Assembly: GCA_021463465.1 (NCBI GenBank)
Contig: JAJTYH010000003.1
Coordinates: 275,549 to 339,548, forward strand
From: a bacterium
GTDB taxonomy: Bacteria; Patescibacteriota; Dojkabacteria; SC72
Direction: 5' to 3'
Length of the DNA: 64,000 nucleotides
Shown here in pieces: positions 483-57,538 of this stretch. A program made the position numbers and the translations under genes. Below the pieces are notes generated by a model. That model was not told where the DNA came from and ran no database searches. It saw nothing but the letters and a program-made list of their open reading frames with translations. Every line of letters starts with the position of its first letter. Within the stretch, counting starts at the first letter, position 1.

Positions 483-563
483 GAGTTCATTATACTGTTA
501 TTGACTTATACTATTCAATAATTTAAGCTGATACCACATTTAATAATTTTACATGATTCCATA

Positions 564-3864: not shown

Positions 3865-3887
3865 ACTTAGTTAAAACAGTCATAATA

Positions 3888-39600: not shown

Positions 39601-42600
39601 GTGGGAATTGTGAGATGTGGAAATCCACTAATAGTTTTACATGGACGCAGCAACAGCCAGGAACAACAATTACATGCAGTAACAGTAATGCAATCTCTAC
39701 TTCAATTGACGGAAATGCAGATATACATGTAGCCTATTTTGATGGTACTTCTTCATTAAAGTATCGACTTTATGATACTGCGACAGATAACTGGGACGGT
39801 GGTGTTGGGGAAGAGAATATCGTTACGGGTGACACTTATAGTTCTGTAGTAGTGTCAATTGACAGTAATAATATCCCTCATATTGCAGTTAGAACTACAA
39901 CAGGGGCCATAATCGGATACAACAATAGAATCGGTGGTACATGGAATGGTTCTTTAACTACGGTTGAGTCTACTTCAGTCACAGATTATTTAGATTTAAC
40001 TATAAATGAAAATAACTATCCTGCAATCTCATATATTACGAGCACATCGCTTGTTGCAAAAGAAGGGAATGCAAACGATGCTTCGTCATTTAACAGCTCA
40101 GGGACTATCGATTCAACTGTGAATACAACAGCTGGTCAAGCTGGCATTTCAATTGCGGTAGACAGTGCAAATGGCGATGAATGGGTAGCGTATATTGACT
40201 CGGGTGGGTCAGTAGCTCTCGCAAAACATAGCGGAGGAACATGGGGATCGGGATGGAGCACAGTTACAACTAAATCAGATATAGGCTCAGAACCGAGCAT
40301 AGCTCTTGCGTGGTCAAACGGGGTATATGTGTTCTATCAGGATGACAGCACTGATCAGAAAATTGTGTACGATTTCTACAATAGTAGTGGGAGTAGTCCT
40401 GCCTGGGTGGGGGAAAAAGTCCTTCTAACCCCAAGTAGTGGAGTTGATTATAAAGATGTAAAGGTGAGGTGGTCTTATTTAAATAACCCTTCTTATTCAA
40501 ACTATTCTTTTGAGTATTTAATTAGTGATAATACGGACTTATATTTCGGACAACTTTCTCTCCCAGATTGGTTAACTAACTGGAGTAAAAGGGTCCCGAT
40601 TGTTATCTCCAACTCAAACATTGATGCTGATTTGACTGCTTTTCCATTAAACTTGACCGTAACTTCAACTTCAGGGACCGCTGACGATGATATGACCCTA
40701 CTTTTTGATTCGCTTGGTGCAAATAGCAAAAAGATTGCAATTACAAAATCTGATGGTACTACAGAGTTATACGCTGAAGTACAACGCTGGGACACTACTA
40801 ATGAAATTGGACAACTGTGGGTTTCAAAAGAAGATTTCGTGCTTTCTGGCTCAACGGATACCACCTTGTACTTATATTATGATAGTAATCACGCTGATAA
40901 TACAAACTATGTTGGGGATACAGGTTCCACAATCGCCGGTAAGGTGTGGGAACCTGGATATAAAGTTGTGGCGCATTTGGATGAAGCAGATGATACATCG
41001 AGGGTCGATGCATCAGGAAATGGGAATACAATGTCAGAAAGTGCTTCTGATACTGTAACCCAATATACCTCTGGGACACGAATTGGTGCGGATTTTGAGA
41101 GGGGTGATACAGAGTTCCTTGAAGTATCTGATAACTCAAGTCTTGAAATGAGTAATTTTACCTTTACTGCCTGGCTTAATGTTGAAAGCACTCAGAGCTC
41201 AGGAGGTGCGTATCAGGCTATTTTCACAAGGGGTGATGGAGGTAATTGGGCATACGGTTGGGCGACTGAATCGGATTCTATCGGAACGTTAATAGATGCT
41301 GATGGGTTTGCGGGGGGAGGAGCTTTGCCAGTGAGCGCTTCTTCTACATTTAATACAGGTGAATGGAATCTATTTCATGTCACTTATGATGGTTCGAATA
41401 TACGGCTGTATAAAAACGGTGTAGAGCTAACTTCTGGAGATTATCCATACGCTACAACTATTTCTATAAATCAAAATAGTACATCAAGTCTAAGATTAGG
41501 AAATTGGCAATCGCAATCTGGTTACTTTGATGGGATTATGGATGAAGTTATGCTTAATAGTGGAGCTAAATCTTCCGCATGGCTAAAGACAGATTATCAC
41601 TCAATGACTGACAATCTTGCGAACTGGGGGACTTCTGAAAGTGTTGCTTTTAGCACCTCCTCCCAAGATACAATTGATACTATCCCAGCTAATATAGATG
41701 ATAATTTTTCAGCAACAGTCGATTCTAGTAATAATGTCCACATTGCATATGTAGACGATGAAAGTACCGATCAAATTTCACATCGAAAGTGGACTAACTC
41801 TACTCAGACATGGGGTAGTGCAACACTTGTTCCAAGTGGAGCAAGTAATACTCATACGAATATAAGTATTGCAATAAACACATCGGCGGCAGATCTGAAT
41901 GATTTGTATGTTTCCTGGATTGATTCTTCAAATAACCACATATATTACCGACAGTATGATAGTTCGGCCACAAGTTGGTTAACTGTTCAGGATTGGAAAA
42001 CAACCGGTACTAATGTCTATCCGACTCTAAACTTCAGTGGTAGTGGAAGAGTATTTGCCCTTTGGAATCAAGGTACTTCTTCTCCTACTACTATTGATTG
42101 GGGTTCAATTTTAGCCCCGTCAGGAGGGAGTGCACCAACAGTTACAAGTGTAAGCTTAAATGGAGGGTCAACGATAACATTAACTGAAGGAACAACAACA
42201 AATATTTCAGTTGTCGGGACAGTTACTGACTTAGATGGTCATGCAAATATATCTACTGCAACAGCAAAGATTTATAGATCAGGTGTATCAGGTGCTCAAT
42301 CATGTTCAAATAGTGATAATAATTGTTACACAGTTGCTAGCTGTTCACTTAGCTCATGTGCTGGAAATACTTGTACAGCAACATGCACTGCACCATTAGC
42401 ATTTCATGCTGATGCAACTGATACTGGGAGTACATATGCATCAGAGTACTGGAGAGGTTGGATTGAAGCTACAGATGATGATTCAAATACAGGTTCTGGG
42501 TTTAGTAGCGTAGGGTCACCTGACCTTGCAAGTACTGCTGCTATGGATATAAGCTCTTCACTTGCTTTTGGCACGCTTTTAGCTGGTGATGACACCGGTG

Positions 42601-42932
42601 CATCTCCTCAGAATACTACTGTCACAAATACTGGAAATACAACACTTGATTTTGAAGTTTCAGGAGATGATTTATGTACTAACTATCCGACCTGTAGTGG
42701 GTCGCAAATAGGTGTTGGGTATCAGGAGTATAAGATTACAACTTTTACATACGGTGCAGGGACTGGATTAACTACTTCCCCAGTGACAGTTGATTTGAAT
42801 CTGAACAAATCTACTGCCGTCCCGTCTAATTCAACATCCTCCTTTTACTGGGGCATAGGAATTCCATCTCCAAAAGAGACTGGGGCGTATACAGGTGCTA
42901 ATACAGTAACGGCGTTAAATGGTGGTTCTTAG
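33675..42932 (+). CDS. Giant (3085 aa) multi-domain cell-surface protein with an N-terminal anchor, a Gly-rich module, beta-helix-like repeats, a BNR motif, 2 LamG-like domains, a DUF2341-like segment and a Cys-patterned C-terminal module
   Basis: A single uninterrupted ORF with an N-terminal TM or signal anchor. The Gly-rich block VEVWGGGGAGGG...GGGGAGGTY is at about 34900-35560. Degenerate repeats of about 65 aa (…TVT(I/L)(S/T)G.G.(I/L)GGG…FYNLT…) run from about 36780 to 38000. An Asp-box SSDTGTTW is near 38250. LamG-like jelly rolls lie at about 38835-39495 and 40960-41600. The DUF2341-like segment WLTNWSKRVPIVISNS...LYLYYDS is at 40560-40910. Confidence 0.8.
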   Translation: MMSWRTKRRLMRLWVALQSTLSMNGYNQRRKFPQNRLGIQSNIRVVGKTLKFGTAIVLAILISTFLFRIVSAEILLTNERNRLEFKSKSNSFLFDQIPIVEIKDTRYVLGSIKNVLGATTQNINEGTSVKLIDPIGNQVSGATIFNVLGNKYQVKVPENVDFVPGKYRLLIDSQGRHVEKDFTWGVLAVNTNKSVFTLGENVFLQLASLDEKGHTLCNSNLKLKITSPNGGVEYTEVRKSGDCFDDNVTLKADYYSNFEPTQIGSYVIQLTNSDLGYTISDSFRVEKSVPFIIERFGPTRIFPKSDYKMKIFVTANTDYVGKVEELVPSSFKVNQKTMEGLNGKLLTWDVNLKKGESKSVEYIFDAPDISPELYVIGPLRIGEFSEYRTWKVASDIVATLTDTYLQTGTWVAPDGVTSASVEVWGGGGAGGGATGNPAAGGGGAGGTYAKKANFSVTAGNSYTTTVGAAKTATTTSSASTNTGNVSWFSSNDTNGVVGEGGPGGAPVSANSSNGNGGTGSTANSFGDGGSVFAGGNASNGNFTSGTPGGAGGGGAGSSGVGGNASAGTGGTGSSTGGGNGANGVANSTAGAAGTTYGGGGSGGKANSTTDRAGGTGAAGAVAVTYSADFPKVEATSTGRDSTDATSHTITMPSGINVGELLIIVFSVDGNPTVTIGSGNWTKLGQASNGTTVTQAIFYKVAEGSDTATVSTSSTQEASHIVYRISGAGDTISGTSANGSSTNSNPPNHNPGTTNNYLWIATRGGDAQVVASVPPTNFANYKSIGAQNSTGASSNTSTRVHQASSLDPGTWTSTTEQWVSYTISVPPPVTLSGAVYTDEIGTNIGANKTVDIRINGTGSYTDETDNSGAWTINVPSIASGAVITAYLDDETEEGTIVMVSDGTSKSDIHIVQNRVFVRHDTGSSITPDNLFSGDDGDDDVKYSVSASSNGNLTVDSGFELHVWPGDTFDASGGSITLQGGANLHVDDTASVYLDTSTNTIAGDALIDGSATLRINANTDINGGDITTSGTNANVTTTSGSPTVTISGTGSIGGGTTPSFTFHNLNTSGTGTTTLSNAVTANNDVTVGSGTTLRINSNLNVNGGDLVNTTTGIIDYTSGTPTVTLTGAGTLGGGSGGISIYNLTTNGSSNSTTLATNNIVISNALNVGTSHTFAMSTNSLTIGSTSISDSGDITMATGSSTSQSASGTVTILGSSNAADWAGPGIFTAYNLTIGNGSNTLSVDNETADLSIDVNNDFNITANATFSASSSSSFTVGNSYSNSGTFTANSGLVTMDAGDSGNTLSGSMTGSSTFYNLRFNNSAGSWTFSNNADVGNDFTITDATAVNAPSSLSVARNFTGSSAFTPGSGTVTLSGAGGTTQTLSGNTTFYNLTANASSSRIIQFTASSTNTINNNLTLTGTNCDALMLLRSTSKGTVWNIDDNTGGTTTVSNVDVQDSTATDQAVTATSSNNSGNNGNWTIAASACEGGSTSITPVSYGFQRKTFFDDTNDVYWMLYHDGDEIEVRYSSDTGTTWNLPSTSSSAHLAYDTSDFSVWNKTISSTEYIFLALKDGFDIKVLVGTLSASNVTWDNDIDTVFDGTSSGDTFSYPYVSLDSSNYVWVGARYYDGTNYVYRTSDSNAIGSTDLSSVGWNPFKQVINNQTNSNVYGNIVPLASQAMYLTVAVGTALRGCIWDDSANDWVDSNDVSCTTESEEYYSTLNNGLISYWRMDETSWNGTSNEVVDSSGNGLHGVRVGDATTENSGFLRSGTFDGSGDYIDAGSPASLDDLPNSDFTVSFWHKYSETGSANFPVFVGKRNYLGSYGWNISTEKTNKYVKLNVLYPGGTDAQFTTDDDAFADGVWSQVTVTWDASTKTGEIFINGIQPSMYNEVSGSGTYTSDASEILRVGHDNVGSPYKGNLDEFRIYDRVLSTSEISQLYQYYPGPINIDNSSDFGSMPGAGRQIIRAGDGDIYAFVNDGGNCEMWKSTNSFTWTQQQPGTTITCSNSNAISTSIDGNADIHVAYFDGTSSLKYRLYDTATDNWDGGVGEENIVTGDTYSSVVVSIDSNNIPHIAVRTTTGAIIGYNNRIGGTWNGSLTTVESTSVTDYLDLTINENNYPAISYITSTSLVAKEGNANDASSFNSSGTIDSTVNTTAGQAGISIAVDSANGDEWVAYIDSGGSVALAKHSGGTWGSGWSTVTTKSDIGSEPSIALAWSNGVYVFYQDDSTDQKIVYDFYNSSGSSPAWVGEKVLLTPSSGVDYKDVKVRWSYLNNPSYSNYSFEYLISDNTDLYFGQLSLPDWLTNWSKRVPIVISNSNIDADLTAFPLNLTVTSTSGTADDDMTLLFDSLGANSKKIAITKSDGTTELYAEVQRWDTTNEIGQLWVSKEDFVLSGSTDTTLYLYYDSNHADNTNYVGDTGSTIAGKVWEPGYKVVAHLDEADDTSRVDASGNGNTMSESASDTVTQYTSGTRIGADFERGDTEFLEVSDNSSLEMSNFTFTAWLNVESTQSSGGAYQAIFTRGDGGNWAYGWATESDSIGTLIDADGFAGGGALPVSASSTFNTGEWNLFHVTYDGSNIRLYKNGVELTSGDYPYATTISINQNSTSSLRLGNWQSQSGYFDGIMDEVMLNSGAKSSAWLKTDYHSMTDNLANWGTSESVAFSTSSQDTIDTIPANIDDNFSATVDSSNNVHIAYVDDESTDQISHRKWTNSTQTWGSATLVPSGASNTHTNISIAINTSAADLNDLYVSWIDSSNNHIYYRQYDSSATSWLTVQDWKTTGTNVYPTLNFSGSGRVFALWNQGTSSPTTIDWGSILAPSGGSAPTVTSVSLNGGSTITLTEGTTTNISVVGTVTDLDGHANISTATAKIYRSGVSGAQSCSNSDNNCYTVASCSLSSCAGNTCTATCTAPLAFHADATDTGSTYASEYWRGWIEATDDDSNTGSGFSSVGSPDLASTAAMDISSSLAFGTLLAGDDTGASPQNTTVTNTGNTTLDFEVSGDDLCTNYPTCSGSQIGVGYQEYKITTFTYGAGTGLTTSPVTVDLNLNKSTAVPSNSTSSFYWGIGIPSPKETGAYTGANTVTALNGGS

Positions 42933-48401: not shown

Positions 48402-49442
48402 ATGGGATACTTTGCGGATGAATTGAAAATAAGGGAAGCTGATGTTGAAAGAGCCAATATTAGTTGGCCAATTATAGATGCAACCAATCCATTTTTACAT
48501 GGTCTCGAAGATAGTTTTGACACTGTTTTAGGTTCCCTTGAAAACTTGGTTATAAAGAGGAGCAATCTAGGTGCAGCAGGTATATATTTGCCCAAAATTG
48601 ACTCAGATATGTTGGAAGCATTGAAGTGTCAAGCAATAAAGCAGGAAGCACTACCTGTAATTGATAGTCATATGGGTGTTAATTTCATTGAAAACGGGTC
48701 TCAAGTTTGGCGGAGACTCCTCTTCCTAACATTCAAAGGGACTAAGTTGTGGAGTGAAGTTATTGAGCCTCATTTCAACCATATATTACTAGGTCCCATC
48801 CTTAGGGGAAGAAAAACAGAAGATGTATTTGTCTATGATATAGATGTTGAAGATCAGCTTTTTTTTGGAGTCCCGAGTAGTACGAAAAAAATAGCAGGAT
48901 GGATTGACTCACTGATGAGTAGGGTAGATCTTAATTCAAAATTCAGTACAAATCTATGGTCACTACACGCACATATTTCAGATGAAATTCGGAAATCTCA
49001 TGGTATATCTCGTCCTGACGAAAACTTAGAGGAGTGGGAGAGGTTGTATGAATACTATTGGAGATTAAACGAATCTCGGCTAGTAACGAATGAAATGAGA
49101 GAGTTTATGATTGGTCGAACCTTAGTGACTATTTCGGTTGACCTACCTTCAGTATACTCTGGGCAACAAATGGCTGAGTATTTTCTTAGCCCAAAAATCA
49201 AAAGGTACTTTGTTAGTCAATTAAAATCAGGCAAGTTAATAAACTCTGAATACTTTACAGATCCATTACTTAAGCATTATGCAAATAATATGTATAGCTA
49301 CCTAATGTCGATGAGTGATGTAGGTGGAAGGCAGCTTACAGTAGAAAGTATTGGAGAGTATATCCAGAGCTATTTAAATGGTATAACCTCAAAATACACC
49401 TTTATTGCAGCGGTACGAAATGAATATTTAGAGAGGGTATAG
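48402..49442 (+). CDS. Hypothetical protein
   Basis: 346-aa soluble ORF immediately downstream of the HDC-like gene, with no recognised motif. Confidence 0.5.
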   Translation: MGYFADELKIREADVERANISWPIIDATNPFLHGLEDSFDTVLGSLENLVIKRSNLGAAGIYLPKIDSDMLEALKCQAIKQEALPVIDSHMGVNFIENGSQVWRRLLFLTFKGTKLWSEVIEPHFNHILLGPILRGRKTEDVFVYDIDVEDQLFFGVPSSTKKIAGWIDSLMSRVDLNSKFSTNLWSLHAHISDEIRKSHGISRPDENLEEWERLYEYYWRLNESRLVTNEMREFMIGRTLVTISVDLPSVYSGQQMAEYFLSPKIKRYFVSQLKSGKLINSEYFTDPLLKHYANNMYSYLMSMSDVGGRQLTVESIGEYIQSYLNGITSKYTFIAAVRNEYLERV

Positions 49443-49506
49443 AGACTTTCTAACCTGTTACTCGCATTTGTAGTACAATGTTCATCCTTAGGTTATTAGT
49501 AGAATT

Positions 49507-50130
49507 ATGAAAAAGCATATTGTTTTTGATTTTGACGATACAATCGCTCCGACGTATAAAACAAATCAGCAACTTTTTTACGAAACCCTTAGACCTTATG
49601 GAGAGAATATTGACGAGGCATATGTAAAAACTCTGCATAAATCTCAAAGAGGAGCCTCAATTAAAGATCTATTCGAGACCGTAGTTAATGAATTTGGATT
49701 GAATGTTAAGGTTGACGCATTGTTATCAAAAAATGAAGAAATGCAAAAAGATAATGCATTAGATATGGCTGCTTTTACGGGAGTGAGACCGTTCCTTTCT
49801 TATTTAAAAAGTAAAAATAAGATTGTTTCTATTTGCACAAATAGAAGTAGGGGGTCGTTGGATATAATTCTTAATAAAAATAACCTATTCGATTATTTTG
49901 ATAATATTATTTCGTGTTTTGATTTAGGTTTTGAAAAGCCAAACCCTAAATGTTTGATTGATTTAATGTCCATGTATCCCGACATTAAAAAAGAGGAGTA
50001 TATTTATATTGGTGATTCAGAGACTGATACCCATTTTGCTGCAAATGCAGGAATTGATTTTATTATAGTTGATCAGTATTTCAATAATGGAGCTTTTTTT
50101 GATTTGATATTGCAGCTGTTTGTTGAGTAG
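49507..50130 (+). CDS. HAD-superfamily hydrolase
   Basis: Motif I VFDFDDTIAPT (DxDxT). A later GDSETD matches motif IV. Confidence 0.75.
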   Translation: MKKHIVFDFDDTIAPTYKTNQQLFYETLRPYGENIDEAYVKTLHKSQRGASIKDLFETVVNEFGLNVKVDALLSKNEEMQKDNALDMAAFTGVRPFLSYLKSKNKIVSICTNRSRGSLDIILNKNNLFDYFDNIISCFDLGFEKPNPKCLIDLMSMYPDIKKEEYIYIGDSETDTHFAANAGIDFIIVDQYFNNGAFFDLILQLFVE

Positions 50131-50251
50131 ATTGGACGTAGTGATGAAATATTCGCCAATATTGTTTCGTAGGGCACGAGCTTTTAACCATTTTGATTTT
50201 AAATCAACGCTTTACGCCTTCTTAAAATATAGGTATGGAGGAGAGTATTGA

Positions 50252-50809
50252 ATGAAGTTAGAAAGGATTTCGTATATAATGCCTTATATGGCAAAAGGAT
50301 TTCAAATTAGGGTAATTGGCTCAGAACCATTACAAAGTGTTGATAATAATACTGTTATTGATGAAAAAGCCCTTGCAAATATTCACAAAGAAAAGGCTAT
50401 GGATGGAGACGCTCCTTTTCCCATCAGAGAATGGTTATCAATTGATGGAGGGCAGGAAAAGGCAAGAATTGATTCACTAAAAGATGAGATTGTCCAAAAT
50501 GCCGGCGAATATTTCTATCATCAAAATGATGCTCAAATTTGTTTTAGTCACAGCGTAGTTCATGCCTTAGGAGTTGTTGCTTTGATGGAAGGTAAAGTGG
50601 ATTCTTTGGATTTACCGCACCCCATTGATTTACATAAGTCTATTCCAATTGAGTATAAAGATTCAATTACAGGTATGGTAACTGGAGTTGCTGAAAAAGG
50701 GAATGCCATTGGCTATATGATTAAACTAATTAACTTTTTAGGTAAAAAAGAAAATAACTTAGAATTCACACTAGAAAGTGGATTTAACAGTAGAGAACAA
50801 ATATTATAG
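50252..50809 (+). CDS. Hypothetical protein
   Basis: 185-aa ORF with no recognised motif. Confidence 0.4.
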   Translation: MKLERISYIMPYMAKGFQIRVIGSEPLQSVDNNTVIDEKALANIHKEKAMDGDAPFPIREWLSIDGGQEKARIDSLKDEIVQNAGEYFYHQNDAQICFSHSVVHALGVVALMEGKVDSLDLPHPIDLHKSIPIEYKDSITGMVTGVAEKGNAIGYMIKLINFLGKKENNLEFTLESGFNSREQIL

Positions 50810-50851
50810 GAAGTTAAAAGAGGGAATATTGCAATTTTAGTTTTACCAGGA

Positions 50852-51064
50852 ATGAAGCACGCTGTTCTTGCCGTTAAGGCTACCGACGATGGTATGTTTG
50901 TATGCATTGATTCGTTAAGTGAAAATAACGTAGGAAACTATTCAGCCAAAGATATATCAACTGAAACAGCGATTATTATTTCTCCTTCAAAAAGTATTTC
51001 AAGGAAACTCATTAAACCAGCTGATACTGGCTGGTTAAAAGTTATATCCAGCACAAAGCTTTAG
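50852..51064 (+). CDS. Hypothetical small protein
   Basis: 70-aa ORF following the 50252-50809 gene on the same strand. Weak support. Confidence 0.25.
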   Translation: MKHAVLAVKATDDGMFVCIDSLSENNVGNYSAKDISTETAIIISPSKSISRKLIKPADTGWLKVISSTKL

Positions 51065-51233
51065 TTTAGGGTAATCAACGGAGTTAACTGAGAAAACGGA
51101 GATAAATATTGCGGAGGGTGTGAAAGTGTACGCGAATAATTCAGAGCTCTGACATTTTAGATTATTCTTTGAGAAAGTTAATAACCAACTCAATCAATGC
51201 TAAAATTATTCAATAAGTTATTAAAAAGTATGA

Positions 51234-51578
51234 ATGAAACTTTCTCAAAACGATGATCATATGATTTTGGTATATGTTACATGTGATAGTGTTAAGCAGG
51301 CTGAAGAGATTGGAAAAGGTGTAATGAATAAGAAATTATGTGCTTGTGTAAATATATTTGAAAACATGCGACCAATGTTTTTTTGGCCTCCAAAATCCGG
51401 GAAGATCGATAAAAGTAAGGAGGTGGTGCTTATACTAAAAAGTGTAAAGTCAAAGTATGATGAAATTGAGAATGAAGTTAAAGCTCTACACACTTATGAT
51501 GTTCCATGCATCTTTGCTATACCAGTTATATCAGTTGTTGATTCGTATTGGGATTGGCTGAACGGGGAGATGGAATAG
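51234..51578 (+). CDS. cutA: Divalent-cation tolerance protein CutA
   Basis: A CutA1-like protein of about 110 aa: ...CACVNIF...MFFWPPKSGKI...EVVLILKS... Confidence 0.75.
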   Translation: MKLSQNDDHMILVYVTCDSVKQAEEIGKGVMNKKLCACVNIFENMRPMFFWPPKSGKIDKSKEVVLILKSVKSKYDEIENEVKALHTYDVPCIFAIPVISVVDSYWDWLNGEME

Positions 51579-51601
51579 TAAATAATTTACAAACTACACA
51601 T

Positions 51602-52102
51602 ATGAAAATAATGGTTTTTACAGAAGGAACGATTCTTATGCATAGAGCTGGAGTAAATGTATCTAGGGAGGAAAGAGTTAAGCAAGTTGTCGAGGGAGAG
51701 GAGTCAGTACATGACTATAATAGCTATGTACCAAACGGTAATGCTAAGCAGAAAATCAACGAATGGGTTTCTAATGGGGCGGAGATATATTACCTAACAT
51801 CTCGCAGAGGAAAACAGGTTAAGGAAATAAAAGAAATTCTGGAAAAGTATGGATTTCCAGCTATTGGCAATCTTTGTTATAGAAAATTGCTTGATAACTA
51901 TGCTGATGTTGCAGTGCGTGTAATGCCAGATATTCTTATTGAAGATGATTGTGAAAGTATTGGAGGTGAAATAGAAATGACGTATCCGCATATACCCGAA
52001 AAGTATAGAAGCAAAGTTAAATCAGTAATTGTAAAAGAATTTGATGGGATTGATAGTTTACCTGATAGTTTAAACGAGTTATCCACGAAGTTCACGAAAT
52101 AG
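51602..52102 (+). CDS. Hypothetical protein
   Basis: The supplied ORF starts at 51548 and overlaps cutA. The Met at 51602 (MKIMVFTEGT...) avoids the overlap. Function unknown. Confidence 0.4.
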   Translation: MKIMVFTEGTILMHRAGVNVSREERVKQVVEGEESVHDYNSYVPNGNAKQKINEWVSNGAEIYYLTSRRGKQVKEIKEILEKYGFPAIGNLCYRKLLDNYADVAVRVMPDILIEDDCESIGGEIEMTYPHIPEKYRSKVKSVIVKEFDGIDSLPDSLNELSTKFTK

Positions 52103-52267
52103 AAACGGGACTCTCACCGAGCAGTGAATTTTCAATAAGGCGAAATAAACAAGCCATTAAGGGATTCTACCTTCGAACCTAGGGTTATCCAAATTCATCA
52201 AAATTTAGCCTCTTTTCATCCACTAGGCTATTTATTTGAAATAACTGAATTTCAAATCAAAATAGCT

Positions 52268-52351
52268 CAATCCCTACAAAGGTTTTGAAGCATAACAAAC
52301 GAGTCTTGTGGGAACATATGAAGTATGGCGGGACATACGAGTCTGGAACCC
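52268..52351. repeat. Direct repeat copy A, carrying a degenerate copy of the tRNA-Asp 3' end plus downstream flank. Similarity extends upstream to about 52213.
   Basis: caatccctacaaaggttttgaagcataacaaacgagtcttgtgggaacatatgaagtatggcgg is near-identical to 56589-56652. The next 20 nt are a decayed match to the tRNA T-arm. Confidence 0.65.
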
Positions 52352-52434
52352 AAAATGAGAATGAGACAAATGAGACACATAAAAAAGAATGATTGAAAAA
52401 TCTCAATTGATCAAAATAGGAATAGTTGTTTACT

Positions 52435-53289
52435 CTATAATTTTGACAATTCAAACCCTGTTAACCCATTTATGACACTAATTTTCTCATTAATATTATT
52501 TTTAAACGGTATTTCTTGAGCTGAAAGTGTCTCATACGTTGAGGTATATTCATCAAACATAGCCCAGTCACGATGACCTCTTACGGCTTCATTATTAAGA
52601 TATGCAATTACCAATTGAGAATTAAACTCATTATATTCTTTTAGATCCTTAACTAATAAAGACAAATTATTAGCTAGACTTTCGTCACTAATGCTTGCAA
52701 TAGCCTTGTACAAGTTCTCAATTTCATTTTGACAATCTAAACAATCCTTAGGTTCCACATATATTTTGTCATCATCAAATAATCCTTCGCGATGATAATC
52801 CAGTTTAGTATTATATTCGTAGATTTCATCACGAACTTTGTTGCAGAACATATCAAAATTAATCTTACTCAAGCAGTTGTTCTCTTCAAGCTCTTTTACT
52901 TTCGCCGCTCTTTCCTTTGTGAGAATTCCTCTTGGATTCTTAGGATCGCTACCAGGGTTACCAAATCCCCAATCCTGATATCCTAATGATATTGAATAAT
53001 AATTTGAGTCAATAATAAAACTTTCAAAGCTAGTTTTAAAAGCTAATTTTGAGTGGTAGTCTGAATCAATAAGTTCATAATACTTCCTTGTAACCGTAGA
53101 CTTAAGATCATCAAACTTATCTCTATAAATATATCCCACTATCACTATTAATAGAACAAGTAGGGAAAGAACAAAAAATAAGGATAAGCCTTTCTTACTA
53201 GTTCTATACTTGTTCTTGTACCCACACTTTGGACAAATTTTAATATTCTTTTTTAAATCACTTCCGCATTGTGAACAATATTTGGTCAT
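52435..53289 (-). CDS. Zinc-ribbon membrane protein: N-terminal C4 ribbon, single TM and an extracytoplasmic domain
   Basis: MTKYCSQCGSDLKKNIKICPKCGYKN, then a TM helix LSLFFVLSLLVLLIVIVGYIY, then a domain of about 230 aa with the Cys pairs C..C. Confidence 0.6.
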   Translation of the reverse strand: MTKYCSQCGSDLKKNIKICPKCGYKNKYRTSKKGLSLFFVLSLLVLLIVIVGYIYRDKFDDLKSTVTRKYYELIDSDYHSKLAFKTSFESFIIDSNYYSISLGYQDWGFGNPGSDPKNPRGILTKERAAKVKELEENNCLSKINFDMFCNKVRDEIYEYNTKLDYHREGLFDDDKIYVEPKDCLDCQNEIENLYKAIASISDESLANNLSLLVKDLKEYNEFNSQLVIAYLNNEAVRGHRDWAMFDEYTSTYETLSAQEIPFKNNINEKISVINGLTGFELSKL

Positions 53290-54407
53290 CTAATAATAGA
53301 TAAATTTAAACCATATTTACCATTAATAATATTTGCATATGTTCTGATTTGATCATTTAAAATCGATTCCTTATCAGTAAGCTTAGACAAATTATTGATA
53401 ACTTGTTTTTTTTGATCACGAATTCTTTGTATATTTCCGTTTAAATCGTTAATTACACATGTCTTGCTAAATGATGGGCAATTTGATTTCAGCATATCTA
53501 TGTTAAATGAACCAAATTCCTCTTTTTTGTAGTAGGATAATAATTTTGTTACAGAACCATCCTTAACGATCCTAAGTTCGTTTTCATTCCCTCCAATTGC
53601 ATTATCCCATTCAAGTATCTCTTTGTGTTTTTCAATAATCTTTGAGCTGGTTTCATTATAATCCTTTAAAATCATAGTGTATTCAAGCAATACTTGCGAT
53701 AGATCCGGATCTTTAATTTCGGAAGAAAGTTTTATTAATTCTTCAATCTTCTCGTCACAATTTCGACATGTTGTATAGATATTATGGTTGATTGCCCAAT
53801 TTTGTGAGTTTTCGCATGTACTTATAAAATGTGGAAAGTTTGTACTTCCACAAAATCGGGATTCCGTAGATTTCGTATCAATCTTAATGTAGATTTTTCT
53901 GTCCAAATCAATAATTTCATTTCTCAGTTGATCACAATAATTGTCGACATTGAGTAAGCTGTAACAATTTCCCTCATCAATTTTTTTCAATACAGATAGC
54001 CGGTTATTTATTAGTTCCGTAGAGGTTAGAGGTGTATCACCGTCTAATTTATAATTTACAGTATCAAAATCTTTAGCATTTTCTACATTTATATCGTAAC
54101 CGAAAGAAGATTCGAACCAATACAAATTCATTAGGTATTTCTCATGCGAAATTTTGTAATTTCTCTTTGCATCAAAATCCACATCGTTTATTTGAGCAAT
54201 TATGTCTTTATAATTTGTAAAAAAATAGATAATTTTGTCTTTTAAAATGAATCCTCCGCTAAGGAGTAAGACAATAATTATTAAAGAAATGTAAAGGCCA
54301 ATGTTATTCTTAATGGTTTTTATTTTACTGTTTTTATGTCCGCATTTAGGACAAATGCTAATATTTCTTTTTAGTGGAGTTGCACATTGTGAGCAATATC
54401 TGTTCAT
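53286..54407 (-). CDS. Zinc-ribbon membrane protein, a paralog of the 52435-53289 product
   Basis: MNRYCSQCATPLKRNISICPKCGHKN, then a TM helix, then an ectodomain with CRNCDEKIEELIK, analogous to CLDCQNEIENLYK in the paralog. Confidence 0.6.
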   Translation of the reverse strand: MNRYCSQCATPLKRNISICPKCGHKNSKIKTIKNNIGLYISLIIIVLLLSGGFILKDKIIYFFTNYKDIIAQINDVDFDAKRNYKISHEKYLMNLYWFESSFGYDINVENAKDFDTVNYKLDGDTPLTSTELINNRLSVLKKIDEGNCYSLLNVDNYCDQLRNEIIDLDRKIYIKIDTKSTESRFCGSTNFPHFISTCENSQNWAINHNIYTTCRNCDEKIEELIKLSSEIKDPDLSQVLLEYTMILKDYNETSSKIIEKHKEILEWDNAIGGNENELRIVKDGSVTKLLSYYKKEEFGSFNIDMLKSNCPSFSKTCVINDLNGNIQRIRDQKKQVINNLSKLTDKESILNDQIRTYANIINGKYGLNLSIIR

Positions 54408-55255
54408 AGTTGTTTTCCACAGAATTCACAAAATTTAGATCCCGATTCACTTAATTCTCCACATTCTTTACACGGTCGGATATTGTATTTGAAATCAAAT
54501 TTATTTATTTCCCAGATTCTTTTGAGAATATAAGGATGGCTTCCGAGAGTTTCTCCAAGCTTTCCCATTATTTTTGACTCGACTCCTTGAAGTTGTTCTG
54601 ACAATTCATCAATATCTATGTCTTTCGCACAATTTGGGCCAGCAGATATTTTAAGAAGTGTTCTAATTAATGTGCTTTTGTCCTTTGTGCAAATGTAGGC
54701 ACATCTGTCAGATGTATATTCTGTTCTTCTGCCCCAAAATCCAAAAAGAAGCTCTGCAAATGTAAAGTAATTTCCGAGAGGAGAGATTATAGAAAGAAAT
54801 ACAGTATGACGATATTTAATATGACCCAATTCATGTGCTATTACTACCCGTATTTCTTCTGTTTCCAGATTTTCAATTATTGCAGAGTTTATGACAATTG
54901 CGTAACTTCTACCAAATCCCATTGTATAAGCATTCAAGTTAGGATTTTGAGTTATATATACATTTGGCACTCTCTTAATTTCCAAAATCTCGCAACATTC
55001 TTTTACTAATTTGTAAATATGTGGTAGCTGTGTATTCGATATTTGCAAGCTATTTCCTAGCTGTTGCATTTGAAGAAGTCTTATATAGAAAAGCCCAAAT
55101 AACAGTGAAAAGATTAATATTAGTAGATTAACTTTCAAAAGTAAGAATACGAGTAGTAAAGATATTATTAATACAACTAAGAAGGATAACGTTTCTCCCT
55201 TATATCTCAAAATTGATTTTGTCCGATTAGAAAAACGGGACATATTTATTTCCAT
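54404..55255 (-). CDS. M48-family (HtpX-like) zinc metalloprotease with a C-terminal zinc ribbon
   Basis: HEXXH in IAHELGHIKYRH, two N-terminal TM helices and the C-terminal CKECGELSESGSKFCEFCGKQL. Confidence 0.8.
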   Translation of the reverse strand: MEINMSRFSNRTKSILRYKGETLSFLVVLIISLLLVFLLLKVNLLILIFSLLFGLFYIRLLQMQQLGNSLQISNTQLPHIYKLVKECCEILEIKRVPNVYITQNPNLNAYTMGFGRSYAIVINSAIIENLETEEIRVVIAHELGHIKYRHTVFLSIISPLGNYFTFAELLFGFWGRRTEYTSDRCAYICTKDKSTLIRTLLKISAGPNCAKDIDIDELSEQLQGVESKIMGKLGETLGSHPYILKRIWEINKFDFKYNIRPCKECGELSESGSKFCEFCGKQL

Positions 55256-55379
55256 TTAGATAATAATCAATGATACGATATAAAGGTTTATTCATCAAAT
55301 TATTTTCATTTTGGGATAATAGAAAAACTATGAAAAAGATAAGGTTTCAGAAAATAAAGGATTGTGATAGATTGTAATT

Positions 55380-56318
55380 ATGAAGACAACAAAATTCTTT
55401 AGTAAGGAAATCAAACTAGGCAGAGTATTTAAAGGATTAGGTGTCTCATTAGCTTGCTTCATAATGTTAGGATTTATCTCATTCTTTGGTATAGATTCAA
55501 CTTTAAATCTGTTCGACAGATATTCCGCTACGACACTTACTCAAAAATCAGAAGTTCTTGGCGTAAATGACGAGGCTAAGTTAGTCGGAACTTATGGAGA
55601 TGTATATCCAAACGATCCTAAAACAGAATTTGTTTGGGATTGGGAGAGATCTCGAGAAGATTATTATCTATTAGAAAAGTTTATAGAAAATCCTGAATAC
55701 TTTTTACCAAGATGGAAGGGAATTGTTTCTCAAACTTGGTTGTTAAAGAATCAAAAAGAACTTAAATTAGTTTGCCCTGATCTTACAAAGGAATTAGTGA
55801 TTGCTGGAAATTATTATAACTGCACTCTTTCGTATAATGGAAAGGTTTTAAAGAAGGATGTAAGGATGACTGGAAGCTGTAAAGATTTCGATAAGCAGAA
55901 TGATTGTAGTGCTGAAGTAGCTTTCACAGTTTATTCTAATCGATGGGGAGATCATAATTCAGATGAATACATTGTAGCTAATACTTGGGCTTCTGGCTCT
56001 AAGGATTGGGCAACAGTATTCAAACTTAATAACGGAAAGTCCACGAAGCTAATGTTTACAAATGGCTATAAATCTACGGACAAACTCTACATATCGTCGT
56101 ATTCGTTTGATTTGTATGGGAAATCTTCAACTTGGGAGAATGAACAGAACTTTAATGATGAAATTGTATTTATGACAATGTTCCATGAGCCAAGTATGGG
56201 AAGTGATAATAATGTAGAAAATATTTTTGAATATTGGATGATTAAAGGAAATAATCTCGAATTTCAAAAGAAAGTAGTTGATTTATATCGGGAAGGTGAA
56301 GAACCGCATTGGTTGTAG
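55380..56318 (+). CDS. Hypothetical secreted or membrane-anchored protein
   Basis: N-terminal signal anchor GVSLACFIMLGFISFFGI and multiple Cys. No recognised motif. Confidence 0.45.
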   Translation: MKTTKFFSKEIKLGRVFKGLGVSLACFIMLGFISFFGIDSTLNLFDRYSATTLTQKSEVLGVNDEAKLVGTYGDVYPNDPKTEFVWDWERSREDYYLLEKFIENPEYFLPRWKGIVSQTWLLKNQKELKLVCPDLTKELVIAGNYYNCTLSYNGKVLKKDVRMTGSCKDFDKQNDCSAEVAFTVYSNRWGDHNSDEYIVANTWASGSKDWATVFKLNNGKSTKLMFTNGYKSTDKLYISSYSFDLYGKSSTWENEQNFNDEIVFMTMFHEPSMGSDNNVENIFEYWMIKGNNLEFQKKVVDLYREGEEPHWL

Positions 56319-56588
56319 TATCACATATAACTCTCTGGAGAAGTCGTTGTATTGAGAAGAGATTTCCGTGTCTTAGATACGTGTATAAACTTGGTCAAAT
56401 TTCTCTAATATTGCTGAACTATAAAACTTTCTGGGCTCTCAGCTTATAATTTTACATAGGTCGAATTAATCAAGCCACAAAAGGCTTTATACATCGAACC
56501 AAGAGGTGTCGAAATCTAGGCTGAAAACGACTAATTTCATCCACCAGGCTATAATTTCTGAAACTTCGATATTTGCTCAAAACTAACA

Positions 56589-56672
56589 CAATCCCCATAA
56601 AGGTTTTGAAGCATAGCAAACGAGTCTTGTGGGAACATATGAAGTATGGCGGAATGGACGGGGCTCGAACCC
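56589..56672. repeat. Direct repeat copy B, overlapping the authentic 3' end of tRNA-Asp and its downstream flank. Similarity extends upstream to about 56535.
   Basis: Matches 52268-52351. It includes the encoded CCA and acceptor/T-arm 3' half of tRNA-Asp. Confidence 0.65.
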
Positions 56673-56723
56673 GCAACCTTCGCAGTGACAGTGCGATGCT
56701 CTAACCAGTTGAGCTACCACTCC
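56647..56723 (-). tRNA. tRNA-Asp (anticodon GTC), CCA encoded
   Basis: The reverse complement GGAGTGGTAGCTCAACTGGTTAGAGCATCGCACTGTCACTGCGAAGGTTGCGGGTTCGAGCCCCGTCCATTCCGCCA folds as a canonical cloverleaf with anticodon loop CTGTCAC. Confidence 0.9.
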
Positions 56724-56797: not shown

Positions 56798-57538
56798 ATG
56801 AAAATCTACACACTAATCTTCGATAAGAAATTCGAACTCCAAACAGAATCAGGATTCTTAAATGAGAATCTCATCCAAAAAATTGCTGATAAGCTTGAAG
56901 AAGGAAAATTAGAAGGCAAACTACGTTATAAAGGTGACCACCTTTACTGGCATGTGGTTAAACACAAAAGTAATTATGTGGTTTCTGTTGTTGATGTTAC
57001 GGAGTTTATACAATACAAGAGAGAGGCAATGCTTGACCAACTCACAGGGCTATACACACGACATGCGTATTGGAGGTTGTTGGGCAATGAGGTTGATGAA
57101 GCAGTGCGTCTTAAGCACCTCTTAGGGGTTGTGTTCATCGATATTGACAACCTAAAATCAATTAACGCTGAAAGAGGATATCTTGGTGGTGACTTTGTAA
57201 TCCAGGGAATTGCACACCTTGTATTAAAAGTTATACGAAAATACGACAATGCTGTTAGACTTGGTGGCGATGAATTTTTGGTTTTGATTAATTTGAAAGA
57301 CGAGCATCGAACTTTGTTTGAAAAAACTGTCATTCGTATTTACAAAAAGATTCACGAAAAAGCAAAAGAGTTCTCTTCGGCCACTGTGGTTGGAACTGTC
57401 CTTGAACCCAGCGTACTAGAGAAACTTCATAAGGCCAGAAATCTCAAAGAGGAATGGGAGAAAGTTATTGAAAGTTTAGATAATCAGGTTATAAGTGCTA
57501 AACGAAGTGGAAAAGATAATTATCGAATAATTCCCTAG
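56798..57538 (+). CDS. GGDEF-domain diguanylate cyclase with a short N-terminal domain of unknown function
   Basis: An intact GGDEF active site RLGGDEFLVLI and an upstream DxDxLK-like VFIDIDNLKSINAERGY. Confidence 0.8.
   Translation: MKIYTLIFDKKFELQTESGFLNENLIQKIADKLEEGKLEGKLRYKGDHLYWHVVKHKSNYVVSVVDVTEFIQYKREAMLDQLTGLYTRHAYWRLLGNEVDEAVRLKHLLGVVFIDIDNLKSINAERGYLGGDFVIQGIAHLVLKVIRKYDNAVRLGGDEFLVLINLKDEHRTLFEKTVIRIYKKIHEKAKEFSSATVVGTVLEPSVLEKLHKARNLKEEWEKVIESLDNQVISAKRSGKDNYRIIP

Follow-up and report, generated by a model that had tools for sequence, protein, structure and literature searches.

The 4.3-kb segment on the 3′ side of tRNA-Asp in the DNA analyzed here, a 64-kb stretch (the window) of a 453-kb source contig, is probably an integrated, recombinase-less cassette, CIME-like or satellite-like in form, belonging to a family of large serine recombinase (LSR)-encoding islands. 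The family probably also inserts at one fixed position, immediately after the 3′-terminal CCGCCA of tRNA-Asp in Dojkabacteria-like CPR bacteria. We favor this reading because a conspecific contig carries an empty site and at least four alleles occupy the same position; because the two arms of the element are common to other organisms and an LSR island; because homology in independent pairs breaks off at CCGCCA; because a full-length LSR lies in an island that starts at a flank unit; because the cargo has the lowest GC content in the window and the cassette has no recombinase; and because a sister MAG holds the cassette in tandem and a conspecific contig carries a gene akin to an island backbone gene. 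Coordinates are collected in Table 1.

Table 1. Features of the tRNA-Asp locus (window positions)
Feature	Position	Strand	Basis or remarks
184-aa HAD-like protein gene, far-side neighbor	51548-52102	+	Stop codon abuts flank A
Far repeat copy (flank A)	52099-52331	-	nhmmer E value, 7.1e−46; L002 empty site
Conserved element end (class-1 pseudo-end, P arm)	52332-52387	-	Family comparison
Inserted unit, 4321 nt	52332-56652	-	L002 versus window; L010 unitig; GC 31.1%
284-aa cargo gene	52435-53289	-	Zinc ribbon and TM segment, architecture as in 373-aa gene
373-aa cargo gene	53286-54407	-	N-terminal zinc ribbon, then TM segment, then Cys-rich domain
283-aa M48-family zinc metalloprotease gene	54404-55255	-	Pfam PF01435; E value, 1.8e−23
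312-aa cargo gene	55380-56318	+	N-terminal membrane anchor; no Pfam family
Near repeat copy (flank B)	56433-56652	-	nhmmer E value, 5.7e−45; alignments; identity by segment
Intact tRNA-Asp(GTC)	56647-56723	-	ARAGORN and Rfam RF00005, 68.6 bits
GGDEF protein gene, conserved neighbor on tRNA-Asp 5′ side	56798-57538	+

Repeats, alleles, and cargo at the tRNA-Asp locus

The sequence-only reading had proposed that att-type direct repeats bound an insertion at the 3′ side of tRNA-Asp, and a repeat search, BLASTN, and a profile agreed on the repeats. The repeat search paired 52259-52351 with 56580-56672 (93 nt, 86%; spacing, 4321) and, as a further piece, 52214-52231 with a stretch from 56535. BLASTN of one copy against the window gave 73.5% identity over 230 nt (E value, 6e−32) and identified no third copy there, and both copies were matched by an nhmmer profile built from 30 copies of the repeat family. 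The repeat proved longer than first described, at ∼230 nt, far beyond chance, reaching back to the stop codon of the 184-aa gene. At an offset of 4321, ungapped identity was 92/151 over 52127-52277, 53/54 over 52278-52331, 13/20 over 52332-52351, and 14/49, or background, over 52352-52400. The near-identical block (56599-56652 in flank B and 52278-52331 in flank A, with the sole mismatch at 52295) consists of the last 6 nt of tRNA-Asp (CCGCCA, 56647-56652), the sole part of the tRNA within it, and 48 nt downstream. The adjoining 20 nt that had been taken as tRNA-derived are those matching at 13 positions. This end of the tRNA serves as the left (B) arm for insertion. Flank B is the element-borne right arm (P′), which forms an attL-like junction with tRNA-Asp, and flank A is the resident right arm.

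The expected empty site was found in a conspecific metagenome contig (L002), which is 97.7 to 98.9% identical to the window and carries the 184-aa gene, flank A, the intact tRNA-Asp, and the GGDEF gene in that order. The native tRNA 3′ end is directly joined to flank A in this allele; the pseudo-end therefore came with the element, inside the inserted DNA. The limits in Table 1 are one of several equivalent frames, as the boundary can be placed anywhere within the 54-nt block. A second allele, flank B plus the 4.3-kb cassette, is shared by the window and L010, whose unitig of 4351 nt equals 4321 + 30. A third has flank C, a 141-aa gene, and an LSR C-terminal fragment (L005/L008), and a fourth has yet another flank (L007), so that the tRNA-proximal position holds at least four alleles among conspecific strains. 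In the sister MAG (L103), the junction order is 312-aa gene, flank B, block, and P arm, then different cargo; the window cassette therefore sits behind a second cassette, in tandem.

Four ORFs fill the interval between the repeats. None carries a recombinase domain according to Pfam, PADLOC, and PHROGs, in agreement with the earlier observation of no integrase between the repeats, and neither the cassette nor the other parts of the window that were searched yielded a recombinase. The 283-aa metalloprotease has HELGH, TM segments at its N terminus, and a zinc ribbon at its C terminus, and its gene heads a three-gene operon in which stop and start codons overlap. A 308-aa paralogue of the 312-aa gene was found in the neighboring cassette of L103. 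The GC content of the cargo (31.1%, versus 37.4% in the window) was the lowest among all 4.1-kb stretches there, in keeping with the inserted origin first suspected.

Beyond the GGDEF gene lie genes for thioredoxin, Sua5/TsaE, TsaD, and enolase, and this side is syntenic across related species. The far side may be an older, fixed island, because a 53%-identical homologue of the 184-aa protein sits inside an array of another species (L123).

Shared element ends and arrays in other organisms

The far tRNA end, which had been described as decayed, is instead a conserved element arm, the P arm (GTCTCATTTT-GGTTCCAGAC-GTATGTCCCGCCA; in the tRNA sense, GTGTCTCATTTGTCTCATTCTCATTTT-GGGTTCCAGACTCGTATGTCC and then CGCCA). 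Other organisms have it in near-identical form on at least 11 contigs, where it departs from the tRNA-Asp genes compared by the same fixed differences. Over its last 20 nt (52332-52351) it mimics tRNA-Asp from the T-loop to the acceptor part, and the 52352-52387 stretch was seen again at the end of the neighboring L103 cassette. The P arm also forms the distal end of a ∼24-kb phage-like island with an apparently intact LSR, and the window copy differs from the distal end of an LSR island (L135, 508-543) at 2 of 32 positions.

A crossover in the T-arm had been proposed as well, and in its place four independent comparisons put the switch between alternative left arms at the terminal CCGCCA of the tRNA, with homology breakpoints there in the window versus L103, L125 versus L130/L104, and L005 versus L111. 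The tRNA was therefore never split. The tRNA-like stretch of the element arm extends only as far as the T-arm, which is why similarity stops at that point. A classical tyrosine-integrase tRNA island, with T-arm crossover, a far copy that is the decayed, displaced native fragment, and a deleted integrase, is highly improbable for this locus. It would account for similarity between far copy and tRNA that ends in the T-loop (GGGTTC), where tyrosine integrases usually act, and for an intact tRNA at one end with a partial copy at the other, which is the standard Islander-type signature (PMC4383910). However, the tRNA-like 20 nt are a conserved, family-specific sequence and not local decay, the pseudo-end lies within the inserted DNA, and no tyrosine recombinase was found in the cassette or window, nor did one recur among 121 ORFs of related loci, surveyed for domain families matching at least two ORFs, which held three LSRs and three LSR remnants.

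The flank family was present in 26 further contigs, with eight copies following an intact tRNA-Asp and the remainder following P arms. Co-oriented flank arrays at 13 loci comprise 24 cassettes, in which flanks of ∼230 nt separate one to seven genes beside tRNA-Asp or, once, tRNA-Ser. Flank units in the arrays are spaced 719 to 7568 nt apart (median, ∼1.4 kb), half of the cassettes are single-gene, gene orientation is mixed (17 same and 42 opposite), and truncated flank units also occur. Cassettes shared between arrays have differing neighbors in each (L112/L117). RNAalifold predicted no conserved hairpin in the repeat unit (−2.2 kcal/mol).

The sequence-only reading had left three alternatives, of which a decayed island and an element mobilized in trans are both viable. 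The third, a segmental duplication of the tRNA-Asp locus in which the second tRNA decayed, the four genes are ancestral, and the "empty" strain is a deletion, would explain why the copies have ∼230 nt of downstream flank in common, above the need of a minimal att core. It was rejected as barely credible because the far tRNA-like arm is a member of a cross-species family, the cargo is compositionally foreign, the cassette sits behind a different neighbor in L103, and a related species (L125) has the same architecture with unrelated cargo. Moreover, flanks A and B are just 61 to 73% identical beyond the 54-nt block, no closer to each other than either is to copies from other genera.

Serine recombinase islands and a proposed model for insertion

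A full-length LSR of 433 aa, with Resolvase, Recombinase, and Zn-ribbon domains and YARKSS..Q and DRLSRN motifs, matches SPbeta and TP901-1 integrase structures. It lies within an island beginning at a flank unit (L125/L130), where its neighbors are large terminase, ParB-methylase, OLD nuclease, and type I R-M genes. One of the backbone genes of this LSR island shares 76% identity with the 141-aa gene of L005. The LSR family gave 42 matches, none on a contig as long as the source contig of the window, and no LSR was found in the window itself, which leaves a cognate enzyme for this genome unproven.

Each family element has two conserved ends, a P arm of ∼50 nt, whose final ∼25 nt imitate the tRNA 3′ end, and a P′ arm, which is the flank of ∼230 nt. 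In the model that we propose, recombination of the element (P-CCGCCA-P′) with the chromosomal tRNA-CCGCCA-(resident flank), with exchange presumably at CCGCCA, would seat the element between tRNA and resident flank and leave the tRNA intact. The resulting order would be tRNA, flank B, cargo, P arm, and flank A, as observed. Autonomous members are the phage-like islands of ∼24 kb encoding the LSR, which we infer to be the enzyme and which is the most likely catalyst. The window element, having lost or never had an LSR gene, would be mobile only with LSR supplied in trans, and otherwise stranded; we infer that it may still be mobile.

Insertion and deletion could instead proceed by homologous recombination. 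Circular or linear donor DNA would then enter via the 54-nt block (Campbell-type), or whole alleles would be swapped by transformation, with the tRNA/GGDEF side and the flank/184-aa side as arms; loss would follow from recombination of the two block copies. The block is the sole near-identical stretch, with either side at 61 to 65%, and resembles a recombination substrate or conversion tract; strains ∼2% apart make within-species allelic replacement plausible, and the window yielded no recombinase. Over their first 48 nt, flanks A and B are 98% identical to each other, and their shared block variant differs from flank C, the flank beside the LSR in L005, whose start resembles them far less. 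The L005 LSR may not be cognate, and the block could equally serve homologous recombination. This explanation is nevertheless unlikely, since left-arm breakpoints coincide at CCGCCA in independent pairs, drawn from different organisms, whose flanks are only ∼70% identical, and it leaves unexplained both the origin of a P arm conserved across genera and the strictly co-oriented arrays anchored at the tRNA 3′ end.

Tentatively, the cassette may be a dead remnant in an att-site graveyard, a deletion leftover of a complete LSR island that is now fixed and immobile, with the arrays of relatives as remnant accumulations. The N-terminal 72 aa of the 312-aa protein resemble the product of a 263-aa gene that, in intact island L125, adjoins the serine recombinase gene (36% identity; E value, 5e−10), a likeness limited to those residues. 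Many LSR homologues are truncated at the N terminus, truncated flank units occur in arrays, and the source contig gave no LSR match. Against a remnant, both cassette ends are complete, with a P arm so close to that of an LSR island, the four or more alleles in one species indicate ongoing turnover at the position, and cassettes are shared between arrays with different neighbors.

Several observations run against an LSR-mobilized cassette. No LSR was found in the window, flank C is mismatched, and no dyad symmetry typical of LSR sites is obvious in the att region. To our knowledge, attL-like sites are not integration targets of classical LSRs, and tandem arrays require exactly such integration. 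The L005 LSR ORF runs off its contig, and its closest homologues (P0001, P0002, and P0020) have no catalytic domain. At the one complete LSR-island distal end seen, the P arm is followed by ...CCCG and TATTACGG instead of CCGCCA and flank. The check for tyrosine recombinases at related loci was confined to families matching at least two ORFs.

Comparison with known integrative elements

The cassette would be a familiar kind of hitchhiker island, here in an uncultured Dojkabacteria-like CPR bacterium, with both host and format unusual. IMEX arrays at dif (CTX/TLC/VGJ) resemble it in recombinase-less tandem integration in which each insertion regenerates a usable target. IMEXs rely on host XerCD at the 28-bp dif site, whereas nothing dif-like or Xer-like was seen in the window family. 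Integrons share one-to-few-gene cassettes split by a recurring recombination-site unit, one fixed anchor, and entry of new units at the anchor-proximal position. However, the window family yielded no IntI-type tyrosine recombinase, its unit is ∼280 nt of conserved sequence without a conserved hairpin, versus the structure-defined attC, and its genes point in both directions.

CIMEs (cis-mobilizable elements) and site-specific accretion are known from the ICESt1/ICESt3 family and streptococcal tRNA-Lys elements. The term is used in PMC3146451, PMC5704250, and PMC7563491. CIMEs likewise are bordered by att sites akin to those of autonomous elements, carry genes for neither recombination nor transfer, and occur in tandem with other elements at one site. 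The CIMEs known to date differ in that they stem from Firmicutes ICEs or IMEs, which use tyrosine integrases or else DDE or serine recombinases, and no conjugation genes were seen in the window's element family. Mobilization of CIMEs has been demonstrated experimentally, whereas the window family is known here from sequence.

The closest analogues are the SCC/psiSCC elements and the Dehalococcoides ssrA islands. SCC and pseudo-SCC elements sit at rlmH (orfX) in staphylococci. Like the window family as modeled here, SCC elements show serine-recombinase-mobilized insertion at the 3′ end of a conserved gene, which stays functional, and tandem composites separated by short direct repeats, and pseudo-SCC units are ccr-less and retain end repeats. 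They differ in using CcrAB or CcrC pairs and 15- to 18-bp integration-site sequences, in unit size (3 to 60 kb), in having no long conserved arm and no tRNA target, and in host, staphylococci versus a CPR bacterium.

The ssrA-specific genomic islands (ssrA-GIs) of Dehalococcoides were described by McMurdie et al. in 2011 (PMC3146451), where SCC elements are also discussed. They too lie in tandem after a small stable-RNA gene, downstream of it, and its 3′ end is repeated at their boundaries, with a conserved motif beside the repeat that has no match to the RNA gene; in what appears a further likeness, autonomous members encode an LSR (DsiB, CcrB-like) on the reverse strand near the RNA-proximal end (PMC3146451). 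The differences lie in the target (tmRNA in ssrA-GIs versus tRNA-Asp, or tRNA-Ser at one locus), the exchange point (mid T-loop versus terminal CCGCCA), and the repeated unit (20 bp versus ∼280 nt, P arm plus 230-nt flank). Unlike ssrA-GIs, the window family has much smaller cassettes, judging by the spacing above, a 433-aa LSR with no second small recombinase seen, and an autonomous member that has a terminase and looks phage-derived. Fifteen ssrA islands have no integration module and were read as cis-mobilizable elements (PMC3146451), and the window element would be the counterpart of these integrase-less ssrA-GIs.

Extent and nature of the repeat beside tRNA-Asp

The intact tRNA-Asp(GTC) lies at one end of the island. 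A repeat search identified pairs at a constant offset of 4,321 nt (52259-52351 versus 56580-56672, 93 nt, 86% identity; and 52214-52231 versus 56535-56552), and BLASTN of one copy against the whole window returned its partner as the sole match (73.5% identity over 230 nt; E value, 6e-32). The copy limits defined by a family profile carry the repeat as far as the stop codon of the gene at 51548-52102. The sequence-only reading had reported direct repeats on the 3' side of the tRNA; these exist but are longer than it proposed. Identity between the copies is highest in a 54-nt block, to which the tRNA contributes only its last six bases (CCGCCA, tRNA sense), the other 48 nt lying downstream.

Coordinates of the repeat, tRNA, cassette genes and family recombinase (window positions unless a contig is named)
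Feature	Position	Strand	Detail
tRNA-Asp(GTC), intact, one island end	56647-56723	minus	ARAGORN and Rfam
Far repeat copy (flank A)	52099-52331		profile from 30 family members
Near repeat copy (flank B)	56433-56652		profile from 30 family members
Repeat, ungapped stretch	52127-52277		92 of 151 positions identical
Repeat, near-identical block	52278-52331		53 of 54 positions identical
Stretch aligned with tRNA T-arm and acceptor	52332-52351		13 of 20 positions identical
Stretch beyond the repeat	52352-52400		14 of 49 positions identical; background
Protein with N-terminal zinc ribbon and TM segment	52435-53289	minus
Protein with N-terminal zinc ribbon and TM segment	53286-54407	minus
M48 metalloprotease, C-terminal zinc ribbon	54404-55255	minus
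312-aa membrane-anchored protein, no family	55380-56318	plus
Large serine recombinase (LSR), 433 aa	L125 10390-11691; L130 10001-11302		PF00239 and PF07508 (Resolvase, Recombinase and Zn-ribbon)

At an E value of ≤10, Rfam matched only the tRNA between 51900 and 56900, leaving the flank with no match to any known RNA family. The sequence of the flank unit is conserved across 34 aligned units, for which RNAalifold gave a consensus of −2.24 kcal/mol with eight pairs and essentially no covariation. A structured RNA or tRNA-like processing signal was therefore dropped as an explanation, and the unit was treated as a DNA site. The flank starts with a degenerate tRNA-Asp 3' half (AAGGTTGCGACAAGACCCGTCCACTATC) at 52099-52331 of the window and in all units of the flank alignment, and two more T-loop-like motifs lie within it (GGTTCGAAGG) and at its end (GGTGAGAGTCCCGTTTCTGT). 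A near-invariant inverted pair, CCGTCCAC ... GTGGATG, ∼70 nt apart, was present in all flank copies. These T-loop-like motifs and the inverted pair could be sites for accessory proteins. Inspection by eye for dyad symmetry around CCGCCA found nothing convincing, and a promoter and terminator scan was uninformative, with counts the same as in shuffled sequence.

Insertion polymorphism and the ends of the cassette

An exact-protein look-up with the neighboring GGDEF protein retrieved nine metagenome or metagenome-assembled genome (MAG) contigs. One conspecific contig, L002 (97.7 to 98.9% identical to the window), carries the 184-aa gene, flank A, the intact tRNA-Asp and the GGDEF gene in direct succession, and thus provides the empty site. 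Two others, L005 and L008 (98.2 to 98.5% identical), have a third version of the flank beside the same tRNA; behind it come a 141-aa gene and part of an LSR (its C-terminal 220 residues), so that an LSR fragment occupies the same site in a conspecific strain. In L007 (positions 1-90; SRR30163053), the flank next to this tRNA-Asp is a fourth allele, whose core conforms to the family consensus (TTCTTTCAAGGTTGCGACAAGACCCGTC), and the GGDEF protein is identical to that of the window. Five more contigs break off in or beside the repeat block, as does a contig of 244 kb that reaches it from the opposite direction; a repeated or polymorphic site has this effect on de Bruijn assembly, and the repeat accounts for the breaks at this tRNA in metagenome assemblies of these organisms. 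The cassette also assembles alone, as a unitig of 4,351 nt (4,321 + 30) in L010. This was not taken as evidence of a circular form, since the 30-nt end overlap equals the assembler's k−1 and a repeat-bounded unitig fits equally well.

Species-representative contigs searched with the GGDEF neighbor yielded only distant GGDEF domains (≤42% identity) and no close relative, and the nearest named homologues of the enolase were from Candidatus Dojkabacteria/WS6 (60 to 65% identity). Contig L120, considered as the empty site of a sister species, was set aside because its 184-aa ORF is unrelated to that of the window, so that synteny holds on the GGDEF/thioredoxin side only.

Two motifs conserved in flanks A and B and in the L005/L008 version were used to search public contigs, and one IMG/VR and 25 metagenome contigs were retrieved. 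In every retrieved case the flank starts directly after ...CCGCCA. Eight flank copies are preceded by an intact tRNA-Asp and the others by one of a few conserved pseudo-ends, of which the commonest class (class 1) includes the far copy in the window: (C)TTTTTATACTGTCTCwTTTGTCTCATTTTrGGTTCCAGACnyGTATGTCCCGCCA. Class-1 pseudo-ends are common to L103, L111, L112, L115, L117, L118, L119, L123, L125 and L126, and their fixed differences from the tRNA-Asp genes used for comparison are also the same. This conservation across contigs identifies the 20 seemingly decayed tRNA bases as a conserved element arm, P, whose last ∼25 nt imitate the T-loop-to-CCA part of the tRNA, with the ∼230-nt flank as the other arm, P'. 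These 20 tRNA-like bases of the far copy had been described as decayed; comparison with the empty site shows them to be part of the inserted DNA. An IMG/VR search with the class-1 P arm joined to CCGCCA gave no exact match. Short tandem repeats of GTCTCATT(T) lie ahead of the P arm at 52352-52387, with three copies in the window and two in most relatives; in L103, one repeat has been deleted (6 nt, ATGAGA).

A segmental duplication at the tRNA locus, offered earlier as an alternative, is rejected, as the far arm belongs to an element family and is not derived from the local tRNA, and the two copies, uneven in identity, are not closest relatives along their whole length. The window cassette is read instead as an insertion bounded by attachment sites.

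A tandem arrangement was found in L103, from contig 46 of the sister MAG GCA_020853275.1. This contig carries the 312-aa gene, flank B and the block, and then no tRNA; beyond the block lies the pseudo-tRNA end with ∼35 nt, the same sequence in which the cassette of the window terminates, and the genes after it are entirely different. The window-type cassette there thus sits behind a second cassette.

The GC content of the cassette interval is 31.1%, compared with 37.4% for the window, and is the lowest among all 4,081-nt windows, a compositional check that agrees with insertion. All four cassette ORFs lack a recombinase domain, and recombination or transfer genes are likewise absent from the cassette; together with the empty site in L002, this upholds the original proposal of an att-bounded insertion with no integrase of its own. 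PADLOC and PHROGs returned no defense-system or phage-function call on the cargo apart from the metalloprotease, and an exact look-up of the M48 protein found no record with this start codon. The 312-aa protein resembles a recombinase-adjacent island gene over its N-terminal 72 residues only. The three-gene M48/zinc-ribbon operon recurs at 96.4% identity in L102 (1-2426 versus window 54786-52366; contig 66 of GCA_020853275.1), where the homology ends 15 nt short of the pseudo-end and is followed by a glycosyltransferase cluster absent from the window; L102 represents either another genomic setting of the operon or a mis-join in the MAG. Elsewhere in the window, a single 3,085-aa ORF with Gly_rich_2 and Laminin_G_3 domains occupies 33675-42932 (precomputed annotation of the identical Logan contig L101).

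Recombinase-bearing islands and the point of exchange

The flank family adjoins LSR islands in L005, L116, L092 and L125/L130, and the succession tRNA-Asp, flank, one gene, recombinase is found again in both L116 and L092. Among 121 ORFs of the related loci, three full serine recombinases were identified, with fragments in L005, L092 and L111. The apparently intact 433-aa LSR carries the motifs YARKSS..Q and DRLSRN and matches the structures of the SPbeta and TP901-1 integrases. It lies on an island found in L125 and, 94 to 98% identical, on an IMG/VR contig (L104/L130/L135). On the latter (L130 3-9959 and L135 8260-19957; IMGVR_UViG_3300023207_001384), the island encodes a small-terminase-like HTH protein, a large terminase, a ParB-methylase, an OLD-family nuclease and a complete type I restriction-modification system, and looks like a prophage or phage-derived defense island of a CPR bacterium. 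Its far end, ∼24 kb on, is formed by a class-1 P arm in which only 2 of 32 positions differ from that of the window (L135). The 141-aa gene of L005 is 76% identical to a backbone gene of this island.

No such recombinase was identified in the window by tblastn with the L005 recombinase fragment or by Pfam on 34 of 54 ORFs, and tblastn with the L005 141-aa protein likewise gave no matches. None of the 42 LSR-family matches lay on a contig as long as the 452,990-nt source contig or longer. Tyrosine recombinases formed no family with at least two members among the 121 ORFs of related loci, and none was found in the window ORFs scanned. With no LSR gene in the cassette and no homologue found in the window, the cassette would be mobilizable only in trans, or stranded.

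The catalytic resolvase domain is missing from most proteins closely homologous to the L005 recombinase (P0001, P0002, P0008 and P0020; L100 2568-3569; L092 10001-10507), and P0020, a chimera of 168 aa, matches L005 at 93% identity over its last 113 residues. They have the appearance of decayed integrase genes, widespread next to tRNA-Asp in these lineages. The contexts of P0020 and P0002 were discarded as leads: as truncated remnants they inform on decay alone, the gene order in L092 aside. In another relative, a JGI contig (3300072015) carries a 279-aa truncated recombinase, 65% identical to that of L005, ∼4 kb from thioredoxin, Sua5/TsaE, TsaD and enolase genes, an arrangement by which the hotspot beside this conserved gene block spans genera.

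The sequence-only reading had put the crossover in the T-arm. Compared with the empty site, the frame of the inserted DNA can slide anywhere in the 54-nt block, the P arm always being included. Three further independent comparisons of breakpoints were available: the window against L103 (tRNA versus P arm), L125 at 7289 against L104/L130 (class-1 arm versus a near-perfect tRNA-like arm), and L005 at 1327 against L111 at 1925 (tRNA versus class-1 arm). In each, the alternative left arms switch at CCGCCA and the tRNA is never interrupted, which places the exchange at or just past the tRNA 3' terminus rather than in the T-arm.

In the mechanism that we propose, P-CCGCCA-P' on the element would recombine with tRNA-CCGCCA and the resident flank, giving the order tRNA, P', cargo, P, resident flank. 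The catalyst would most likely be the LSR of the family, given its co-occurrence with these ends and the position of the breakpoints at CCGCCA. The insertion polymorphism, the shared ends, the tandem arrangement, the arrays and an apparently intact LSR in family members are observations; the LSR as the enzyme, the exact crossover and any current mobility are inferred. To our knowledge, classical LSRs do not use attL-like targets, which stacking needs. For this particular insertion, homologous recombination through the block common to flanks A and B is a live alternative, since that 98%-identical block differs from the flank beside the conspecific LSR.

One complete distal end of an LSR island was found; past its P arm come ...CCCG|TATTACGG and a DUF5320 gene, with no flank. 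We read the flanks as element-borne and the native right arms as unrelated to them; flank A would then be the leftover P' of an older, fixed element. A 53%-identical homologue of the 184-aa gene beside flank A, located inside the L123 array, is consistent with this. To the left of flank A, GC is lowered (0.31 to 0.35) at window positions 49250-52102, where CutA1 and small ORFs lie together with the 184-aa HAD-like gene; an older island whose distal end has been lost may account for this side.

Cassette arrays and comparison with known systems

A profile search showed that flank units form co-oriented arrays, with 24 cassettes in 13 loci. Copies number five in L114, which is anchored at tRNA-Ser, four each in L125, L121 and L127, and three each in L126, L117 and L123. 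The units are spaced 719 to 7,568 nt apart (median, ∼1.4 kb), half of the cassettes consist of one gene, and the genes point both ways (17 in the same orientation as the unit, 42 opposite). L125 is the syntenic locus of a related organism, in which Sua5/TsaE, thioredoxin, GGDEF and tRNA-Asp are followed by the cassettes: flank, methyltransferase, flank, two small genes, flank, RuBisCO large subunit, and then a P arm with flank. Beyond this array lies the larger island, in which the full-length LSR is the sixth gene.

The RuBisCO large-subunit gene (514 aa; L125 5484-7028; JACDJA010000164.1) is a single-gene cassette between two flank units in this Dojkabacteria-like genome, and may represent a physical vehicle of lateral RuBisCO transfer. 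Such transfer in the CPR group has been inferred phylogenetically, in a study that makes no mention of tRNA, integrases or recombinases (PMC6389311). In L114, five units lie within 4.7 kb (81-4842), with tRNA-Ser(gct) as the anchor in place of tRNA-Asp. Its pseudo-ends, ATTTCGGAAATCATTCCATAyCCTCCGCCA, are similar to the 3' end of tRNA-Ser and were also found in L105, L108/L113 and L127, which suggests a second subfamily using the same flank.

Genomes of CPR/Patescibacteria are tiny. The tRNA-Asp site is a concrete, recurrent hotspot of gene flux in this Dojkabacteria-like lineage, with at least four alleles at one tRNA-Asp within a species, and relatives carry arrays of small cassettes, one of them the single-gene RuBisCO cassette. 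That the ∼280-nt unit, made up of the tRNA-mimicking P arm, CCGCCA and the 230-nt P' flank, belongs to an active integron-like gene-cassette system of Dojkabacteria/CPR, run by a phage-type LSR, seems to us improbable. If it does, the 3' end of tRNA-Asp or tRNA-Ser would be a site of capture and shuffling for single genes and small operons bounded by the unit, with RuBisCO, methyltransferases, defense genes and the M48 operon of the window as candidates. As P' resembles the resident right arm, each insertion would regenerate the target tRNA-CCGCCA-P' and leave an attP-like P-CCGCCA-P', which would let elements stack without limit and perhaps also be excised in the absence of a directionality factor. 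Were the cassettes still mobilized in trans, they would constitute a capture system akin to integrons but based on a serine recombinase, of which we know no described example. The conserved P and P' arms offer a simple search key for such cassettes, and genome engineering might gain a new integrase/att pair in the 433-aa recombinase and the att sites proposed for it.

The family was compared with known types of integrated element. As in the classical Islander type, the tRNA end is intact and an empty site exists; a displaced tRNA 3' fragment with crossover in the tRNA, and an internal integrase, were not found. Integron membership failed because no IntI was found among the recombinase families with at least two members in the 121 ORFs or in the window ORFs scanned, and there is no hairpin attC among the 34 units and no common gene orientation. 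Shared with cis-mobilizable elements (CIMEs) are ends homologous to those of autonomous elements, the lack of recombination or transfer genes, and tandem occurrence. Shared with the ssrA-island and SCC type are LSR-encoding autonomous members, an intact target gene and tandem stacking between repeats. Literature searches found few descriptions of CPR/Patescibacteria mobile elements and none of the present system. The closest described system is the ssrA genomic islands of Dehalococcoides, which lie in tandem behind the tmRNA with 20-bp repeats and are integrated by a serine recombinase of the CcrB-like kind. Fifteen of these islands have no integrase, and that study considers them cis-mobilizable elements (PMC3146451). 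A similar logic underlies SCC/pseudo-SCC composites and streptococcal CIMEs. The family differs from these known systems in its ∼280-nt conserved unit, its very small and often single-gene cassettes, a probable crossover at the CCA end of the tRNA, a phage-like autonomous member and a CPR host.
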